This document shows positions 4,713-35,692 of a DNA stretch of 64,000 nt, piece after piece. Position 1 is the first letter of the stretch; the number at the start of each line of letters is the position of its first letter. The notes beneath the pieces were generated by a model, which made no database searches, was not told the origin of the DNA, and was given only the letters and a program-made list of their open reading frames with translations. Position numbers and translations under genes: made by a program. The DNA comes from Torpedo marmorata (lineage: Eukaryota), in contig OZ360253.1 of assembly GCA_977017645.1 (NCBI GenBank), positions 25,544,001 through 25,608,000 on the forward strand, written 5' to 3'.

Positions 4713-5516
4713 GGATAGTCACCAGACACAAATACTACGCCTGCGACAATGCAGCTTTTGTAAACTAAAACCACTATCCCCTTCTCACCCTCCATCTCAA
4801 CAGTCACTTTGCATACTTGCACTGTTGGTAAGAGAGATGTAAATCAAGGGAAATTCAAACTTGCAGGGTATTAAAATACTGAAAAATTGTTTGGCAGTAT
4901 TCTGATTTGCATTGTTTAGCTCTGTTCCACTCATGGGTTTACCTGTCAAGTGTTTAGCCTTTTTAAAAGCTGGCATCTGCCTTGATAGAAGCTCATCTTT
5001 GCTAAGTGTATAATAACACAAGTCACTTTCTGTTAAGTGTGCAGCTTTACAGCTCACACACCCCTCCATTTCGAACAGAACAAAATGCAAATCTGCTAAT
5101 AGTTCATTTATCTCCTAAAGTCAAGTCAATTTAAATATGCTTGAAGCTCTTTGTGATTTTAACTATCTATTGCAATGTAATAATGGATAACCACCTGAGG
5201 AGATGAGAATGGAAAGGTTTGATGTTAAGGAGTTTGCGGAGGTTTGCTATTACATCGGAAACCTTGGCAAACTTCCGCCGATGTGTGGTGGATTTACGGC
5301 CTGGTATGGAGGCACCAATACCCCTGAGTGGAAAGCCCTGCAAAAGGTAGTGGACACATCCCAGGACATCACAGGCCAAACTCTCCCCACCACTGAGAAA
5401 ATCCACATGGAACGTTTCTGTCAGAGAGCAGCAGGAATCATCACGGATCCATACCACCCAGGGCAATCTCTGTTCTCATTGCTGCCATTAGAAAAGAGGT
5501 ATAAAGGTGAAGGTTC

Positions 5517-5751
5517 AATAACCTCTATGGTAGAATTAGTTTGAAGTTTGTTGTCTCCTCACTCTATTTTTCTATCTTTCTTTTTTCTTTCTCTCTTTTA
5601 CTATATTTTTTTTTAGAATAGTGGGGATATAGGGGTTAGGGAGGGGAGGGTGGGAAGGGGGGGAGAAAATGTATATCACATGTATTTTCAAATATATGCA
5701 TTTTATTTTATGTATTATGTGATTTAAAAATTTAAATAAAATTTAAAAAAA
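5517..5751 (+). mobile_element. L1-like 3' UTR with poly(A)
   Basis: 14-bp TSD aaaggtgaaggttc (5503-5516 and 5752-5765), G-rich tract, AATAAA and A-tail; no coding sequence retained, so the L1 assignment is by analogy with 38553 and 61459. Confidence 0.65.
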
Positions 5752-5765
5752 AAAGGTGAAGGTTC

Positions 5766-5858
5766 CATTATTGTCACGTAATACTACATTTAGAATGTAA
5801 CATACATGAAATTCTTTAATTTTTGTCTACCGTAAGGCAGACAGTGGGTCGCTATCGC
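5766..5858 (-). mobile_element. 5'-truncated copy of the 5S-derived SINE tail
   Basis: Near-identical reverse complement of 10101-10195. Confidence 0.85.
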
Positions 5859-6364
5859 CACAAGACTCGCACCACCAGGTTCAGGATCAGTTGCTACCCC
5901 TCCACCATCAGCGTCCTAAACAACAAACTTAATCAGAGACTCATTTAAGATTCGTACTTTGCACATTATTTATTACTGAAAATTTATTCTTCTGTATTGC
6001 ACAGTTTGTTTACATTTCTTTCTTTCTTTACATTTCTCTCTTTTGGATATGCATCTTTTTCTTGAGTACAGTTTACAGTTACCAATAAGTAGAAATTCTG
6101 CCTGGCTTCACATGAAAAAGAAACTCAGGATTGTATATGATGACATGAATGCACTCCAACAATAAATTTGAACTTTGACTTAACTTTGACCTCCAAGTTC
6201 CAGAACAGATTTTTTTCCCCAATGCCCATCAGGCTCTAGAACCTTCTCTTATTACATAAACCATCAACTACACCAGACCACCAAAAGAACTGTCCGCACT
6301 ATTGAAACACCACTTTTCTTGTTCTGCTGAAACTGTGAATATTTATTATCTGTCTATCCCTTCA

Positions 6365-9959: not shown

Positions 9960-10204
9960 TACAACAGCACCAATAGCCTGAATACGACTGGGATTGTCTG
10001 ATCTCGGAAGCTAAGCAGGCACAGGACTGGTCAGTACTTGGAGGGGAGACCGCCAAGGAACACCAGGTGCTGTAGGTTTCTGTGAGGGGCGCTGGACAAA
10101 GTAGCGACTCTCTGTCTGCCTTACGGTAGACAAAAATGAAAGAATTTCATGTATGTTACATTCTAAATGTAGTATTACGTGACAATAATGGAACCTTTAC
10201 CTTT
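9960..10204 (+). mobile_element. 5S rRNA-derived SINE (SINE3-type) with Rex1-type 3' tail
   Basis: 9960-10079 aligns end to end with vertebrate 5S rRNA (gtctgatctcggaagctaagcagg...tggtcagtacttggaggggagaccgcc...ccaggtgctgtagg); followed by a ~125-nt tail ending gtgacaataatgga(accttt)2; second tail copy at 5766-5858. Confidence 0.85.
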
Positions 10205-10709
10205 AAAACAGAGAGAGGCCTTTCTGCCCACAGTTTGTGTCGATTATGAAGCAAATTTAAACTCCTCCAGTCAGCCAACACATAGTCTACATCCTGCCCT
10301 TCGCTGCCTGTTCACGTATCTGCCTAAAAGTACGATTATTTTATAATATTCCCTAACATCTCTTAATTAACGAATTTGCAGTCAAACGGAAGGGTTAAGA
10401 TCCCATGTAAAGGAAGAGATTAGAATTCCCTTCACATGCATTATATAAAAAAAACTATCCTTTCTAATTAGTTTTAGCTTCTATTTAATGGGAAATACAA
10501 AGATATCAGCCAAGGCAAAGAATTCCAATTGTTTGAAGGTGCACACAAGTTAATAATTAGCTTTTTTTCCTCCATGCTGAATGAAGGGTAGATACAGACA
10601 CAATCAAATACAGAGCAATGCTTGATAATAAGAATGTATTAATTTTGTACAGCTTCATTCAATTGCAGTATTGCAGTAAAAGTGTTCTGAAAATCACTAT
10701 AATGTTATG

Positions 10710-13176: not shown

Positions 13177-13772
13177 CAAAGGTTCAAAGGTTCCTTTTAT
13201 TGTCACGTAATAATACATTAAAAATGTAATATACATGATATACTTCAATTTTTTTTCTGCCGTTTGACAAACAGCGAGTTGCCATGAGCATTGCCTGGCG
13301 TCCCTAACTAATGGAGAAAGAGAAGCAAAAGAGAGTCTCTTCAGAAGCACTGTCCGTGGATTTACCTCCAGCGCTCTGGTGGTCTCTGCAGCTGCACAGA
13401 CACCTGTCCAAACCATCGGCAACCCGAGCTCCAGATCCAAACCTCTGAAGCAATCAGGAAGCTTTCAGCGCCCGAGGCCCTTCGGGAGCCACTTCTTGCC
13501 CTCAGCACCCTCTCGAATCCCGGTTCCGATACCTGGTTCCCCACGAGACAGTCTCCAGCAGCTCGTGTGAGTCCTACAACCACTAAGTCCATCGCTGGGC
13601 CACAGCCGTGGTCACCGCCCTGTAGGGTCGTCTTCTCTGCTTCTCCTTCAAAAGCGGGGGTGGGGGGGGAGTTATTCCCCCATTTTTGGTGCCCTCCACA
13701 GCTCCTCTGGAGTTTGCAACCCCTCATGGTACGCTGCCCAACACAGGTGCCGCCATTTTAGGCACAGACCCC
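13177..13772 (-). mobile_element. CpG-rich non-coding retroposon, 5'-truncated copy
   Basis: Homologous to 24140-24800; tail gtgacaataaaagg(aacctttg)2 on the minus strand. Confidence 0.8.
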
Positions 13773-23950: not shown

Positions 23951-24800
23951 GACGGCGGCGCTGCCGGAGTCGCTGTAGCGGCAGCGCTGCCGCTGGTGCG
24001 GACTCGCGGGGAGCAAGGGAGCGGAGATACAGCGCTCCCGCGGAGTCCAACCGCCCAGTCGACTGCCGTCGGTTCCGCACGGGCTTTGAACAGCCCGTTA
24101 AAGGAGCCGGCGGTGGTTTTATTTGAGATCCCGTGACCGCGGGGTCTGCGCCCAAGATGGCAGCGCCTATTAATCGGCGGCAGCCACGAGGGGCTGCTGA
24201 CTCCAGGGAAGCGGGGGACTGGAGCAGGGCACCAGTGGACGGGAAGATCACCCCCGTCTGAGAAGGAGAAGCGGAGGAGACGACCCACGGGACGGTGAGC
24301 ACAGCGGCGGACCGTTGAGGGGGCTCTGAGGCTGAAGGACCAGTGCATGCTGCGGGCTGCTGGCGACTCAAGGCGAGGAACCCACGGAGGCTGTGCGCTG
24401 CTGGAGACTGCTGTCGGGGGACTCACGACGGGCTGCGGACTGCTGGAGGTTGGCTCGAACTGGCTGGAGGAGTACCAGGTATCGGAACCGGGATGTGAGG
24501 GGGTGCCGAGGGCGACCTGACCGTGTTGGAGGTTCGGATCTGGAGCTCGGGATGCCGATCGTTTGGACTGGACTGTGCGTGGCTGCGGAAGCGCTGGAGG
24601 CGAATCTATGGACACTCGGTGACTCTGGGGGGACTCTCTTTTGCTTCTCTTTCTCTGACTGTAAGGAATGTTAGAGGCGCTTAGGCAATTTCTGCCGATG
24701 GCGAATCTGTCTGCCTTGCAGCAGGCAGAAAGAAATTTTGTGGTATATGACACTGTCTTATTGCTGTGACAATAAATTGAATCTTGAATCTTGAATCTTG
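23951..24800 (+). mobile_element. CpG-rich non-coding retroposon, apparently full length, nested in the Tc1 right TIR
   Basis: Starts gcggcgctgccggag; ends gtgacaataaattg(aatcttg)3; homologous copies at 13177, 25380 and 36898. Confidence 0.85.
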
Positions 24801-25379
24801 AATGTGCACTTTAATTACATGTGAATTGTTTGATTACAAATTTAAAACTGTGGAGTGCAGGGGAAAATAAAGGAAAAAAGTGTCTTTGTCCCAAACATTA
24901 TGAAGGGCACTGTATATCATGGTACAGGGAGAAAGTTCATACCAAGTACAACAATAAAAGCACAATATAGAGTGGAGGTACATAGAAAGATCAGTTAAAA
25001 CAGAGAAAAGGCGACATTATTTCCGTTCATTGGTGAGGTTCATTTAGGAGTCCGATCACAGCAGGAAAGAAACTGTCCTTGCGTTGAGAAGTGCAGGATC
25101 TCACACTCGTGAATCTTCTTCGTTATGGGAGGAGGGTGAAGAGAGCGTGATTGGCTGGGATGAGTCTCCCATTCCGTCCTCTTCACTCTGCCTTCTGTAT
25201 TACCTTACCTCAGTCCTGATGAAGAGTTTCAGCTCAAAACTGTGACCATTTTTTTTATCCCACTGATGCTGCTCGACCCGCTGAATTCCTCTAGCAGATT
25301 GTGTTTGGTTTCAGATTCCAGCATCTGCAGTCTCCTATGTGTCTCTGAGTCTTGTAATAGGTTGATAGGGAATGGAGTA

Positions 25380-26171
25380 GATTCAATATTCAAGATTCGT
25401 CTATTGTCATGTAATATAAACAGTGCAATATTACACGGAATTTGCTTTCATCTGCCATAAGCAGATTTGCCATGGGCAGAAATTGCCTGAAGCGCCTCTT
25501 ACTGTCAGAGAAAGAGAAGCAAAAGAGAGTCCCCCTCAGAGTCACCGAGTGTCCGTAGATTCGTCTCCAGCGCTTCCACAGCCCCTGCAGCCACACAGAG
25601 TCCAGTCCAAACCATCAGTATCCTGAGCTCCAGATCTCCGACACGGTCAGGAACCCTTCAGCGCCCTCGGCACCTTCTCGCACCCCGGTTCCAATACCTG
25701 GTACGCCTTCAGCCATTCTCTTGCCAGTCCCCAGCTGTCCGCCGCCTGGTGTGAATCCCTCGACCGGAGTTGCCTGCAGCCCGCAGCCTGCGCGGATTCC
25801 ACGCCTCGAGTCGCCAACAGCCCACTGCCTGCGTGCTCTTCAGCCGCAGAACCCCTCACTGGTTCGTCGCCGTGGTCACCGTGCCGTGGGTCGTCTCCTC
25901 TACTTCTTCTCAAACGGGGGGTGGGGGTGCGTTCTCCCCATTTTCTGGTGCCCTGCTTCTTCGGAGTCTGCAACCCCTTGTGGGCTGCTGCTGATCCGTG
26001 GTCACAGAATTTTTAAATAAAACCAATGTAGGCTCCATTAACAGGCCGTTTAAAACCAGTACGGAGCTGATGGCAGTCGGACTGGGTGGTCGTGCCGTGC
26101 CGGGAGCGCCGTGACTCCACGGGTCCACACCAGCGACAGTTCTGCCGTTACAGCAGCTCCGGCAGCGCCGC
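25380..26171 (-). mobile_element. CpG-rich non-coding retroposon, apparently full length
   Basis: Same 5' start gcggcgctgccggag and (aatcttg)-type tail as 23951-24800. Confidence 0.85.
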
Positions 26172-27440: not shown

Positions 27441-28721
27441 CAGGGGCGTAGCCAGGTTCTAAAGTTAGGGGGAGCGAGCACATAAAAAAGGCACCACGAC
27501 ACATACCAGATGATGAGTCAGTGGTTGAATGGCGGGCTGCACTGAGTTTTCGGCGATGTTGGACCGGAGCGGGGGTGGTGTGGTGTTGGCATCGGACCGG
27601 AGCGGGGGTGGGGTGGTGTTGGCATCGGCCGGAGCAGGGGTGGGGTGGTGTTGGCATCGGCCGGAGCAGGGGTGGGGTGGTGTTGGCATCGGACCAGAGC
27701 GGGGGTGGGGTGGTGTTGGCATCAGACCGGAGCAGGGGTGGGGTGGTGTCAGTGTCAGACCGGAGTGGTGGGGAGCGGGGGGGTGGTGTTGGCATCGGAC
27801 CGGAGCGAGGGAGTGGGGTGGTGTTGGCATCGGCCGGAGCAGGGGTGGGGTGGTGTTGGCATCGGACCAGAGCGGGGGTGGGGTGGTGTTGGCATCAGAC
27901 CGGAGCAGGGGTGGGGTGGTGTCAGTGTCAGACCGGAGTGGTGGGGAGCGGGGGTGGGGTGGTGTTGGCATCGGACCTGAGCGGGGGTGGGGTGGTGTTG
28001 GCATCGGCTGGAGCAGGGGTGGGGTGGTGTTGGCATCGGACCAGAGCGGGGGTGGGGTGGTGTTGGCATCGGACCTGAGCGGGGGTGGGGTGGTGTTGGC
28101 ATCGGCTGGAGCAGGGGTGGGGTGGTGTTGGCATCGGACCAGAGCGGGGGTGGGGTGGTGTTGGCATCGGCCGGAGCAGGGGTGGGGTGCTGTTGGCATC
28201 GGACCAGAGCGGGGGTGGGGTGGTGTTGGCATCGGACCTGAGCGGGGGTGGGGTGGTGTCAGTGTCAGACCGGTGTGTTGGGGAGCGGGGGGGTGGTGTT
28301 GGCATCGGACCAGAGCGGGGGGATGGTGTTGGCGTCGGGCTGGAGCGGGGGGGTGGTGTCGGCGTCGGACCGGAGCGGGGGGGGTGGTGTTGGCGTCGGA
28401 CCGGAGTGGGGGGGGTGGTGTTGGCGTCGGATCAGAGCGGGGGGGTGGTTTCGGCGACGGACCTGAGGGGGAGGTGGTGTTGGCGTCGGACTGGAGCGGG
28501 GGGGTGGTGTTGGCGTCGGACCGGAGCGGGGGGGGTGGTGTCGGCATCGGACCAGAGCGGCGGGGGTGGGGGAGTGGTGTCGGACCAGAGCGGGGGGGTG
28601 GTGTTGGCGTCGGACCAGAGCGGGGTGGGGGGGGGGGTGTTGGCGTCGGAATGGGGAGGGGGGGAAAGGCACCACTTTTGAAAAATATGCTCCCCCTGCA
28701 CCCCCTCTTGCCAAGCCACTG
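27441..28721. mobile_element. hAT-type non-autonomous element expanded by a minisatellite
   Basis: Ends caggggcgtagcca / ttgccaagccactg; imperfect TSD gttttacc / gtgttaca. Confidence 0.65.
27558..28660 (+). repeat. G-rich minisatellite, unit 30-33 bp (ggaccggagcgggggtggggtggtgttggcatc)
   Basis: More than 30 variant units visible directly. Confidence 0.95.
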
Positions 28722-29575: not shown

Positions 29576-30175
29576 AAAATTACAAGAGACATACTTGCAC
29601 ATTTACAGATTATCAGATTTACTGGATATAATTTCACAGTGGGGTCTCCCTGTTGTGACATGCCCTGTATGATTTCTTGAGGCATTGGAAAGGTATTGGA
29701 ATGATTGGACAATAACGGTTCACTGGAATATGCAGGATTGGACAGAACTATCAGGCAAAGTTAAGAGCTTTTGTCTACTGAGATGGCAATGAGATATCTG
29801 AAAGAAGGGTTTATAGGGGTAGATAAAAAATATAAACAGCTTTTTTTGTCTTCGCAAGAAGACCTAGATTGGCCAGTGAAGAAAGAAAGAGGGAGTTTGG
29901 GAGATGTTTTTCCTCGTACATTGAATGATAACACTTGGTTTTATACCAATGGTCAATGAGTTAATGGTAACAGTATTATTTAAGGAAATGAACTGAATAA
30001 TAATTTAAAAAAAGGAGAAATGCAAGCAGGATGCACAGGTTGTCAGGAAGGTCCGAAAGAAATGTTCACATCAGCAGTGGCTCCGTGGCCTGCAGCTGCG
30101 AGGAAATTTTTGGGAAGAAGGTGGAAGGAAGGAATGAAAGGAGGAAGTGAAAGGAAGTTATGGTGAAAGAAGGAC

Positions 30176-32045
30176 TGGGAAGAGTGAGGGGCGGGTAGAG
30201 TGAGGGGCGGGAAGAGTGAGGGGAGGGAAGTATGAGGGAGGGAAGAGTGAGGGGCAGGAAGAGTGAGGGAGGGAAGAGTGAGGGACGGGAAGAGTGAGGG
30301 ACGGGAAGTGAGAGGGGCGGGAAGAGTGAGGGAGGGAAGAGTGAGGGACGGGAAGAGTGAGGGGCGGGAAGAGTGAGGGGAGGGAAGTGTGAGGGCGGGA
30401 AGAGTGAGGGGCGGGAAGAGTGAGGGAGGGAAGAGTGAGGGAGGGAAGAGTGAGGGGAGGGAAGAGTGAGGGAGGGAAGTGAGAGGGGCGGGAAGTGAGA
30501 GGGGCGGGAAGAGTGAGGGGAGGGAAGAGTGAGGGCGGGAAGAGTGAGGGTAGGGATGAGTGAGGGGAGGGAAGAGTGAGGGGCGGGAAGTATGAGGGAG
30601 GGAAGAGTGAGGGGCGGGAAGAGTGAGGAAGGGAAGAGTGAGGGACGGGAAGAGTGAGGGACGGGAAGTGAGAGGGGCGGGAAGAGTGAGGGAGGGAAGA
30701 GTGAGGGACGGGAAGAGTGAGGGGCGGGAAGAGTGAGGGGAGGGAAGTGTGAGGGTGGGAAGAGTGAAGGGCGGGAAGAGTGAGGGAGGGAAGAGTGAGG
30801 GAGGGAAGAGTGAGGGGAGGGAAGAGTGAGGGAGGGAAGTGAGAGGGGCGGGAAGTGAGAGGGGCGGGAAGAGTGAGGGGAGGGAAGAGTGAGGGCGGGA
30901 AGAGTGAGGGGAGGAATGAGTGAGGGGAGGGAAGAGTGAGGGGCGGGAAGTATGAGGAAGGGAAGAGTGAGGGGCGGGAAGAGTGAGGGCGGGAAGAGTG
31001 AGGGGAGGGAAGTGTGAGGGCAGGAAGAGTGAGGGGAGGGAAGTATGAGGGAGGGAAGAGTGAGGGACGGGAAGAGTGAGGGAGGGAAGAGTGAGGGACG
31101 GAAAGAGTGAGGGAGGGAAGAGTGAGGGAGGGAAGAGTGAGGGAGGGAAGAGTGAGGGGAGGGAAGAGTGAGGGAGGGAAGTGAGAGGGGCGGGAAGTGA
31201 GAGGGGCGGGAAGAGTGAGGGGAGGGAAGAGTGAGGGGAGGGATGAGTGAGGGGAGGGAAGAGTGAGGGGCGGGAAGAGTGAGGGGCGGGAAGTGTAAGG
31301 GAGGGAAGAGTGAGGGACGAGAAGAGTGAGGGAGGGAAGAGTGAGGGAGGGATGAGTGAGGGGGGGAAGTGTGAGGGAGGGAAGAGTGAGGGAGGGAAGA
31401 GTGAGGGAGGNNNNNNNNNNNNNNNNNNNNNNNNNNNNNNNNNNNNNNNNNNNNNNNNNNNNNNNNNNNNNNNNNNNNNNNNNNNNNNNNNNNNNNNNNN
31501 NNNNNNNNNNGGAAGGGTGAGGGGAGGGATGAGTGAGGGGAGGGAAGGGTGAGGGGAGGGATGAGTGAGGGGAGGGAAGGGTGAGGGGAGGGATGAGTGA
31601 GGGGAGGGATGAGTGAGGGGAGGGAAGAGTGAGGGGGGCGAAGAGTGAGGGGTGGGAAGGGTGAGGGGAGGGATGAGTGAGGGGAGGGAAGGGTGAGTGG
31701 AGGGAAGAGTGAGGGGAGGGAAGAGTGAGGGGAGGGATGAGTGAGGGGAGGGAAGAGTGAGGGGAGGGAAGGGTGAGGGGAGGGATGAGTGAGGGGAGGG
31801 AAGGGTGAGGGGAGGGAAGGGTGAGGGGAGGGATGAGTGAGGGGAGGGAAGGGTGAGGGGAGGGATGAGTGAGGGGAGGGAAGGGTGAGGGGAGGGAAGG
31901 GTAAGGGGTGGGAAGAGTGAGGGGAGGGAAGAGTGAGGGGAGGGGTGAGGGGAGGGATGAGTGAGGGGCGGGAAGAGTGATGGGGAAAGAGTGAGGGCAC
32001 GTAGAGTGAGGGAGGGAAGAGTGAGGAGCGGGAAGAGTGAGGGCG
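30176..32045 (+). repeat. Polypurine minisatellite (gggaagagtgagggga, 15-16 bp) spanning an assembly gap
   Basis: Directly visible; 360-bp higher-order periodicity on the left side. Confidence 0.97.
31411..31510. other. Assembly gap (100 N)
   Basis: Run of N. Confidence 1.
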
Positions 32046-32169
32046 GATTGGAGAACAAAGGAGTGCGGAAAAGGGAGGAAGAAAGACACAAAAAGCATTC
32101 ATGGAAATGATGGATAGAAAAAAGGGAAAGAGATGTCAAAAGGAAGATGTGGAAAGAAAGGATGAATGA

Positions 32170-34010: not shown

Positions 34011-35692
34011 TAGCGAAGAACCGCCCCTCCGCACCCCCCACGTCCCCTGACGATCCCACCCTGTCCGTATCTGAGGATGAAGTGTGTGCTGCCTTCAGGA
34101 GAGTGAATCTGAGGAAAGCATCCGGCCCGGATGGAGTACCTGGCCGAGTATTAAAGATCTGTGCTGATCAACTTACCAAGGTATTCACGGATATCTTCAA
34201 TATCTCACTCCAGCAGGGCGTGGTACCCACCTGTTTCAAACAGGCCTCAATCATACCAGTCCCCAAGAAGAGTGCAGTAACCTGCCTTAAAGACTATCAA
34301 CCAGTAGCACTTACATCAACAGTGATGAAGTGTTTTGAAAGGCTGGTGATGAAACATATCAGCTCCTGTCTGAGCGGTGACATGGATCCATTCTAGTTTG
34401 CCTATCGCGGCAACAGGTCTACGGCAGATGCCATCTCACTGGCTCTACACAAAGCCCTGGAACACGTGGACAGCAAAGATGCATACATCAGAATGCTCTT
34501 TATCGACTACAGTTCGGCATTTAAAACCATCATCCCCTCAAAACTGATCAGCAAACTCCAAGAACTGGGAGTTAACAACCCACTGAGTTATTGGATCATG
34601 GATTTCCTCACCTCCAGACCACAATCAGTGAAGATTGGTAAGAACTTCTCCTCTACAATCTCTTAGCCCCCTGCTCTATTCACTTTACACCTACGACTGT
34701 GTAGCTCGGTATGACGATAACACCATCTACAAATTTGCCGAAGATACCACGGTAGTAGGTTGTATAAAGGAAGGGGACGAGTCAGCATACAGGATGGAGA
34801 TTGAAAACCTGGCTGAATGGTGCAACAACAATAACCTTGCACTCAATGTCACCAAAACTAAGGAGCTGATTGTTGATTTCAGGAAAGGAAAGCCAGAGGT
34901 ATACAATCCAGTGATCATTGGGGGATCAGAGGTGGAGAGGGTGAGCAAATTTAGGTTCTTGGGAGTCACTATCTCGGAGGATCTTTCCTGGATCCAACAC
35001 ACCAATGGCATCGTGAAGAAAGCACGTCAGCGCCTCTACTTCCTCAGGAGTTTGCAGAGGTTTGGTATGACACCAGAAACCCTGGCAAATTTCTACAGAT
35101 GTGTGGTGGAAAGTGTGCTGACCGGCTGCATCACGGTCTGGTATGGGAACACCAATACCCCTGACCGTAAAGCCCTCCAAAAGGTAGTGGACACATCCCA
35201 GGATATTACTGGCAAAATCCTCCCCACTATTGAGAACATCTACAGGGAACGTTGCCGTCGGGGAGCAGCAACAATCATCAAAGACCCACACCACCCAGCA
35301 CACGCTCTGTTCTTGCTGCTGCCATCAGGAAAGAGGTATAGGTACCACAAGACTTGCATCACCAGGTTTAGGAACAGCTGCTGCCCCTCTACCATCAGAA
35401 TCCTTAACGACAAAGTCAAATCCGAGACTCATTTAAGGACTCTTACTTGTGCAATTTATTGATTTTTCTTTGCTCTCTCTGTATTGCACAGTCAGTTTCA
35501 TTTTCATTTTCAGTTTCATTCGTTACCTGTTAGCAGTTCTTTTGATTGTTTACATGTTTACGCTGTGTACAGTTTACTTTTTGCACTACCAATTAGTAGT
35601 AATTCTGCTGCGCCCCCAGGAAAAAGAACCTCAGGGTTGTATGTAATGTCAATTATGTACTCTGACAATAAATCTGAAATCTGAAAAAATCT
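34011..35692 (+). mobile_element. Rex1 subfamily B, longest copy (RT domain with stop and frameshifts)
   Basis: [58 protein letters not shown]; (TCTGAAA)n tail. Confidence 0.95.

Follow-up and report, generated by a model that had tools for sequence, protein, structure and literature searches.

A young and abundant 5S rRNA-headed SINE family in Torpedo marmorata and its likely mobilisation by Rex1-type LINEs

Introduction

The SINE3 elements of vertebrates, which carry a head derived from 5S rRNA, were assigned in 2020 to LINEs of the CR1 clade (PMC7245038), and the 5S-headed Deu-SINEs SINE3-1 of zebrafish, AmnSINE1 and OS-SINE1 are listed with CR1-4_DR or RSg-1 as partners (PMC3747384, PMC7245038). 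A SINE paired with a Rex1 LINE is tabulated for the sea anemone Nematostella, where the tRNA-headed SINE2-5_NV goes with Rex1-24_NV (PMC3747384). Pairs of SINEs with tRNA and 5S heads on one and the same 3′ part are also on record, namely CoeSINE4/CoeSINE5 and HaSE1/HaSE3 (PMC5786205) and Ped-1/Ped-2 (PMC3747384). According to the model in PMC5786205, a template switch adds the small-RNA head to an ORF-less LINE derivative; the sources of ORF-less bipartite elements given in that paper are RTE, Ingi, Vingi and R2, and Rex1 is not among them. The SINEs reported from cartilaginous fishes, HE1 (HER1), SacSINE1 and the CmiSINEs, are tRNA-headed, possess V, Deu or CORE bodies and have HER1, CR1 or L2 as partners (PMC3747384, PMC5499810).

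Here we analyse an element at positions 9960-10204 of a 64,000-nt stretch of the Torpedo marmorata genome (contig OZ360253.1, positions 25,544,001 to 25,608,000 of the forward strand; hereafter the window, to which all plain coordinates refer). A preliminary description based on the letters of the window had presented it as a 5S-headed SINE that appears to borrow the Rex1/Babar machinery. The element is a copy of a young, abundant SINE3 family, and several lines of comparison connect its tail with Rex1-type LINEs.

Results

Head, tail and predicted fold of the element

Positions 9960-10078 match the Rfam model RF00001 across model positions 1-120 (46.5 bits, cut-off 38, E 1.7e-6), the sole gathering-level Rfam match in the window. 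The head is identical to an arrayed 5S gene of the same genome at 94/119 positions (79%); the threshold for a SINE3 is an identity to 5S of no less than 60% along 60 nt or more of the 5′ end. Within box limits that we assume, the A box (13/15), intermediate element (5/6) and C box (15/18) are largely identical to those of that gene, which, together with the model match, bears out the 5S head and its three boxes as first described. The window copy differs from the 5S gene at 24 places between positions 1 and 117, none of which touches G70, 71, 81, 82, 85-87 or 89 of 5S, presumably TFIIIA contacts. Mismatches amount to 6 in 48 nt inside the control region versus 15 in 65 nt outside it, that is, no significantly better retention (Fisher P = 0.22). 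The type-1 internal promoter is retained, with no Pol III terminator inside the element: as had been claimed, only three T follow the head, no run within the element is longer than that, and the first TTTT 3′ of this copy lies at 10339.

Another early claim, that a rewritten 5′ end pairs with the 3′ arm of the head, agrees with both the minimum free energy and the centroid structures, in which ACAGCACC (9964-9971) pairs with GGTGCTGT (10066-10073). The whole element folds with z = -4.94 (0/200 shuffles as good) into a predicted 5S-like head followed by three tail hairpins. Helix III of the head (9987-10004) also forms a perfect 8-bp stem through changes on its 5′ side, a second head stem to have been made perfect. 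Remodelled in this way, helices I and III may prevent the cell from treating the RNA as 5S rRNA. In the tail, the hairpin, the TGACAATAA motif and the (ACCTTT)2 repeat are all present as described, the end motif of this copy reading GTGACAATAAT and not ...AATAAA. No conserved Deu, V or CORE central domain was seen in the alignment (a comparison made independently of any domain library), in which the tail matches an ORF-less family, described below, directly from the 3′ end of the 5S part. The features of the element, ~241 nt in length, are as follows.

9964..10076, + strand: 5S rRNA-derived head (5S positions 5-117), from RF00001, identity to the 5S gene and the commonest copy start at 4-5
9964..9971, + strand: rewritten 5′ arm, predicted by folding to pair with 10066-10073 (extended helix I)
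10009..10056, + strand: type-1 Pol III internal control region, with A box 10009-10023, intermediate element 10026-10031 and C box 10039-10056 (limits assumed)
10077..10079, + strand: TTT where head and tail meet, likely representing the oligo-U of the 5S 3′ end and below the length of a Pol III terminator (alignment, list of T runs)
10080..10204, + strand: tail, common to a tRNA-Thr SINE and ~80% identical to the 3′ end of an ORF-less ~0.8-kb family
10113..10132, + strand: tail hairpin 1, predicted 8-bp stem with TTAC loop
10147..10188, + strand: tail hairpin 2 closing at TGA, then CAATAA (Rex1-type 3′ signature in this genome)
10180-10188, + strand: TGACAATAA end motif
10193..10204, + strand: (ACCTTT)2 terminal repeat, with 0-4 units in 78 near-full copies

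The span proposed originally needs correction at its start: because copies most often begin at head position 4-5 (18/40 unbiased headed copies), 9960-9962 are probably flank and the element probably starts at ~9963-9964.

A young and abundant family

A genome search with the element yielded 676 candidates, and all 40 matches that were scored cover at least positions 3-242 at 98-100% identity. Loci lie on many contigs and flanks were unrelated in 30/30 fetched loci. A 23-mer of the tail has 14,092 exact matches in the genome (reversed control 0) and a 24-mer across the head-tail junction has 24,350 matches on both strands with up to two mismatches (reversed control 0); the 5S head sequence was present at 28 of the first 30 tail loci and missing from two. 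Eighty-eight random 10-kb tiles contained 15 copies with a mean divergence of ~2.2%, and 11 junctions. Extrapolated from these 0.88 Mb, the junctions would correspond to ~78,000 copies versus the 24,350 counted genome-wide, a density about three times that of the count (seven further tiles held no junction); since the tile estimate and the count disagree, we take the copy number to be at least 24,350. Head and tail are therefore not joined at this locus alone, the case that would have told against the preliminary description, and its view of a mobile 5S-headed family rather than a lone pseudogene is confirmed by the copy counts, the unrelated flanks and the fixed junction.

SINEs are defined as interspersed elements under 1 kb with at least 100 copies (PMC3531059); under this SINEBase definition the family, dispersed, ~241 nt long and with 24,350 junction matches, is a SINE. 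It also has the marks of a retroposon, namely 5′ truncation (copy starts range from position 2 to 156), a variable 3′ simple repeat and retroposition-type junctions. At 13 reconstructed empty sites, the junctions range from a 12-nt overlap to a 31-nt deletion (median -1). There is no consistent long target duplication, the lengths in 86 copies resembling those of 425 shuffled pairs except for two outliers of 15 and 22 nt; target duplications that are short or missing do not discriminate between Rex1 and CR1. Only three head or tail columns vary among the 30 top copies, in agreement with an unbiased consensus, and ~20 head changes are common to the copies and absent from the 5S gene. Taken together, these observations establish a young, abundant SINE3 family.

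Two other origins were considered and ruled out. A DNA transposon or satellite does not fit copies that are dispersed, 5′-truncated and variable in tail length, and the tail does not come from a 5S rDNA spacer, as only the head matches the 5S array. The 5S genes of this genome form a tandem array on another contig, with units ~3.1-3.8 kb apart; one array locus (L045) contains, close to its end, another 5S-like match of 82%.

The second copy that the preliminary description had reported in the window is indeed truncated and lies within a Rex1-type fragment; its coordinates, given there as 5766-5858, are to be replaced by those below.

5752..5854, - strand: 5′-truncated member of the 5S family that covers positions 143-245 at 96% and runs antisense to the surrounding Rex1-type fragment

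The last 14 nt of this copy are duplicated at 5503-5516 and flank a later poly(A)-ended insertion (5517-5751). Positions 5228-6176 thus form a three-level nest, in which a Rex1-type fragment contains the antisense truncated SINE and this in turn the poly(A)-ended insertion with its 14-bp duplication. The window also contains a ~250-nt repeat family (for example, 2651-2906) with more than 15 copies, probably a tRNA-type SINE, and long GC-rich and CT-rich minisatellite arrays at 27557-28664 and ~30050-32140, the second with an assembly gap.

An ORF-less family and a tRNA-Thr-headed sister share the tail

The nearest relative of the tail outside SINEs is an older ORF-less family of ~0.8 kb, with 11,290 candidates, a fixed 5′ end starting AAAATGGCG, a (GAACCTTT)n repeat at its 3′ end and no RT similarity. 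The alignment between its final ~125 nt and the SINE begins at SINE position 118-122, with ~75-84% identity (about 80%). None of 30 loci selected by the 5′ end of this family has an ORF of its own downstream of that end. Copies in the window are the following.

13178..13772, - strand: 5′-truncated copy of the ORF-less family (N790), its 3′ end homologous to the whole SINE tail
23954..24800, + strand: full-length element of W24k, a sister subfamily of the ORF-less family
~25379-26170, - strand: further copy of the ORF-less family

The ORF-less family is GC-rich and abundant, with 32 tail matches in 880 kb of tiles; its AAAATGGCG 5′ end is repeated internally, a pyrimidine tract ending in AG lies just 5′ of the tail, and its end is Rex1-type. 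This family and the Rex1 families A, B and C (see below) all start with AA(A/G)ATGGCG, which in the Rex1 families we take to be YY1-like. Rex1 families A and B also contain a GGCGAC-pyrimidine stretch near their 5′ end that resembles the start of the SINE tail. The 5′ end of family A and the tail of the ORF-less family match over 12 nt (P 0.005 in one of 24 comparisons), a possible sign of a bipartite origin that was not counted as evidence.

A second SINE family shares this tail. Its head is a nearly intact tRNA-Thr(UGU), scoring up to 67.6 bits with Rfam, that passes ARAGORN in 11/13 loci tested and is called Thr in 10/13; the head motif has 1,724 matches in the genome.

L162:1449-1655: example of the tRNA-Thr(UGU)-headed SINE, among loci L161-L180

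At 16/20 of its loci the tail forms an uninterrupted alignment with the 5S SINE that begins at position 118-121 of the latter and reaches 91-97% identity, the other four having deletions or an insertion in the tail. Both SINE families are ~2.1% diverged. Two tail states, a T instead of G in hairpin 1 and one A less, set the tRNA family apart from the 5S family as well as from the ORF-less outgroup, and 14/20 copies of the tRNA family keep the TTT at the junction, where the 5S head would have ended. These tRNA-specific states and the retained TTT favour the 5S family as the first of the two, and the tRNA-Thr family appears, on balance, to have arisen later by head replacement.

The sequence of the 5S SINE, or part of it, is found in public runs under eight organism labels from 10 studies (20/23 rows), one of which may be the source sample. 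Runs under three labels (B, F and H) retain 5S-like letters in the head, at positions 62 and 96 in most of the depth and at position 67 in ~40-55% of it. Under two of these labels (B and F), the 5′ terminus is complementary over 10 nt to head positions 106-115. The family therefore predates the burst in this genome, and its extended stem is a maintained feature. At tail site 10103, both SINE families of this genome have A, and labels B, F and H (~97-99% of depth) as well as the ORF-less outgroup have G. This one site, apparently derived in both SINE families here, hints at tail exchange between them.

Rex1-type and CR1-type LINEs as candidate partners

TGACAATAAA followed by a short repeat forms the 3′ end of several RT-bearing families, and Pfam RVT_1 and ALKBH8_N were matched in 3/4 window pieces of RT-bearing families. 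The ORF-bearing family with the most similar tail is family B, which has a single long EN-RT frame of ~3.2 kb and whose 3′ part occurs in the window.

34632..35690, + strand: 3′ part of Rex1-type LINE family B, with Pfam ALKBH8_N and with RVT_1 just under the cut-off

Published Rex1 primers encode FSSAFNT and SRLFLLR and delimit an amplicon of 573-575 bp (PMC3728117). Family B has YSSAFNT and QRLYFLR with a span of 573 nt; the primers themselves do not fit its DNA sequence (7-8 and 10-11 mismatches). LINE families A-C are likely Rex1-type, family B being classed by these primer motifs and their spacing rather than by a tree of named references. Copies of families A and B can be as young as the SINE. 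A census of RT motifs in 95 tiles gave 17 that we take to be Rex1-type, 18 CR1-type and 10 L1/Tx1-type, and no L2- or RTE-type motif.

One rule was applied to Rex1-type and CR1-type ORF ends in 88 random 10-kb tiles. The motif TGA[CT]AATAA occurs up to 450 nt past 36/64 Rex1-type versus 0/42 CR1-type ORF ends (Fisher P ~8e-11), with a background of 3.6% of random windows; allowing one mismatch, it occurs at 49/64 and 1/42 ends, respectively, with a background of 12.2%. CR1-type ORF ends carry a different tail. The TGA is predicted to be paired in the SINE tail and in most of 12 Rex1 tails. By P values uncorrected for 18 comparisons, the SINE tail aligns best to family-B tails (3/3, P 0.002-0.022, and ~0.02 without the motif), the only ones that align to it both with and without the motif; without it, 8/9 non-B Rex1 tails were not significant, and none of six CR1 tails aligned significantly. 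The motif counts at ORF ends support the earlier assignment of the tail to the Rex1 type rather than the CR1 type. The link to Rex1 is supported but indirect, since the SINE tail resembles those of ORF-bearing Rex1 elements in structure and, weakly, in sequence, and these comparisons make Rex1 quite probably the partner of the SINE.

The autonomous Rex1 with the same (ACCTTT)n end that had been envisaged as the source of the tail was not found, the closest relatives being the ORF-less ~0.8-kb family and the tRNA-Thr SINE. Among 50 tail-like matches in the 88 tiles, some of them pieces of one element, none belongs to an ORF-bearing element with the exact SINE tail; three have RT sequence 446-722 nt upstream, but with a SINE head or an ORF-less element in between. 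Such an ORF-bearing parent was also absent around loci of the ORF-less family and in long copies of Rex1 families A and B. A family-A copy inside an ORF-less copy (locus L248) was rejected as parent, being a nested insertion. With ~1 Mb of 6,221 Mb sampled at random, a low-copy parent LINE would be missed. The partner might be a rare or extinct LINE of a neighbouring lineage (Babar-like or unclassified) from which the ORF-less family descends, Rex1 families A-C not being the movers; a tail that matches the ORF-less family at ~80% along its 125 nt and is weakly similar to any ORF-bearing tail would suit such a source. We consider it improbable, given that a very abundant SINE diverged by ~2% needs an active partner and that families A and B are active in that age range and share the same terminal architecture.

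Even poorer prospects attach to a SINE3 moved by CR1 or L2 machinery with an incidental resemblance to Rex1. This would follow the vertebrate SINE3s that PMC7245038 assigns to the CR1 clade, CR1-type RT motifs are abundant in the tiles (as common as Rex1-type ones), and a Rex1 with the exact tail was found neither in the tiles nor at 30 loci. Yet CR1-type ends have another tail, with the motif after none of 42, none of the six CR1 tails aligns significantly to that of the SINE and L2-type RT motifs were not seen in 95 tiles, so that a tail belonging to CR1 or L2, named at the outset as the result that would contradict a Rex1 origin, was not encountered and this reading is very unlikely. Finally, independent 5S processed pseudogenes or 5S-LINE chimeras, suggested by a TTT junction resembling a template-switch product, are refuted as an alternative to a self-propagating family by the junction fixed in 24,350 places, the ~20 shared head changes absent from the 5S gene and the rarity of headless tails (2/30).

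Discussion

The element at 9960-10204 is best explained, and in our view probably so on the evidence of its sequence, as a full-length member of a young, abundant SINE3 family. Pol III likely transcribes it from the 5S promoter retained within its head, and the proteins of Rex1-type LINEs likely act in trans to copy it. Transcription driven by TFIIIA, TFIIIC and TFIIIB would read through the three-T junction as far as a T run in the flank, here at 10339. The Rex1 ORF protein would then recognise an end composed of stem-loop, TGACAATAA and microsatellite, and would prime at the nick by microhomology with the (ACCTTT)n end. As to the origin of the family, an RT that was reverse-transcribing the last ~125 nt of the ORF-less family would have switched template to the 3′ oligo-U of 5S rRNA, in line with the template-switch model of SINE birth (PMC5786205, PMC4494074).

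A more ambitious version of this explanation is tentative, and we hold it to be possible without favouring it: the family would be the first Rex1-mobilised SINE3 of a vertebrate, born from a hitherto undescribed class of ORF-less ~0.8-kb parasites of Rex1, with 5S and tRNA heads exchanging one tail and with a structural signal read by the Rex1 protein. That signal would consist of the hairpin closing at TGA, the CAATAA and the microsatellite, not of family-specific sequence.

If Rex1 is the partner, the rule that vertebrate SINE3s depend on the CR1 clade, as stated in PMC7245038, no longer holds without exception, and Rex1 is to be added to the LINE clades from which ORF-less dependants and SINEs have arisen (compare those given in PMC5786205). 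A single genome would then hold a graded series built on one signal, from autonomous Rex1 through the ~0.8-kb ORF-less family to the 5S SINE and the tRNA SINE; such a series, if true, makes both the little-studied RNA-recognition rule of Rex1 and the head-swap model directly testable. On the practical side, the annotation of 5S and tRNA genes will be inflated by the near-intact 5S heads, which number in the tens of thousands, and by more than 1,700 tRNA-Thr heads of a kind that passes ARAGORN, and the young SINE insertions can be used as phylogenetic markers.

Comparison with known systems

The pairing of a 5S head with Rex1 looks new: it was not found in the literature searched, Repbase, Dfam and SINEBase lying outside the comparison. 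The table rows of PMC3747384 that were covered contain no 5S-Rex1 pair, and such a family is not named in the portions of PMC5499810, PMC6274825, PMC8455134 and PMC3531059 that were covered. Already known are the SINE3 class, pairs of 5S and tRNA heads, and one Rex1-linked tRNA SINE, that of the sea anemone.

With HE1, SacSINE1 and the CmiSINEs of cartilaginous fishes, the Torpedo family shares the organisation of a Pol III-type SINE with a LINE-derived tail, and tail switching has been described for those elements; unlike it, none of them, as they are presented in PMC3747384 and PMC5499810, is 5S-headed or Rex1-linked. SINE2-5_NV is comparable as a SINE linked to a Rex1 LINE (PMC3747384). It differs in that its partner is named, whereas for the Torpedo family, which has a 5S head and a tRNA-Thr sister, no exact autonomous partner was found. 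CoeSINE4/5, HaSE1/3 and Ped-1/2 resemble the two families described here as tRNA- and 5S-headed SINEs sharing a 3′ part, but their 3′ parts are reported to derive from RTE/BovB (PMC5786205, PMC3747384). SINE3-1, AmnSINE1 and OS-SINE1, as described in PMC3747384 and PMC7245038, represent the same class of element in vertebrate hosts, with a 5S-derived head and a LINE-like 3′ end; in contrast to these Deu-SINEs, the Torpedo element lacks a Deu body and consists of head and tail alone, and its tail is of the Rex1 type in this genome.
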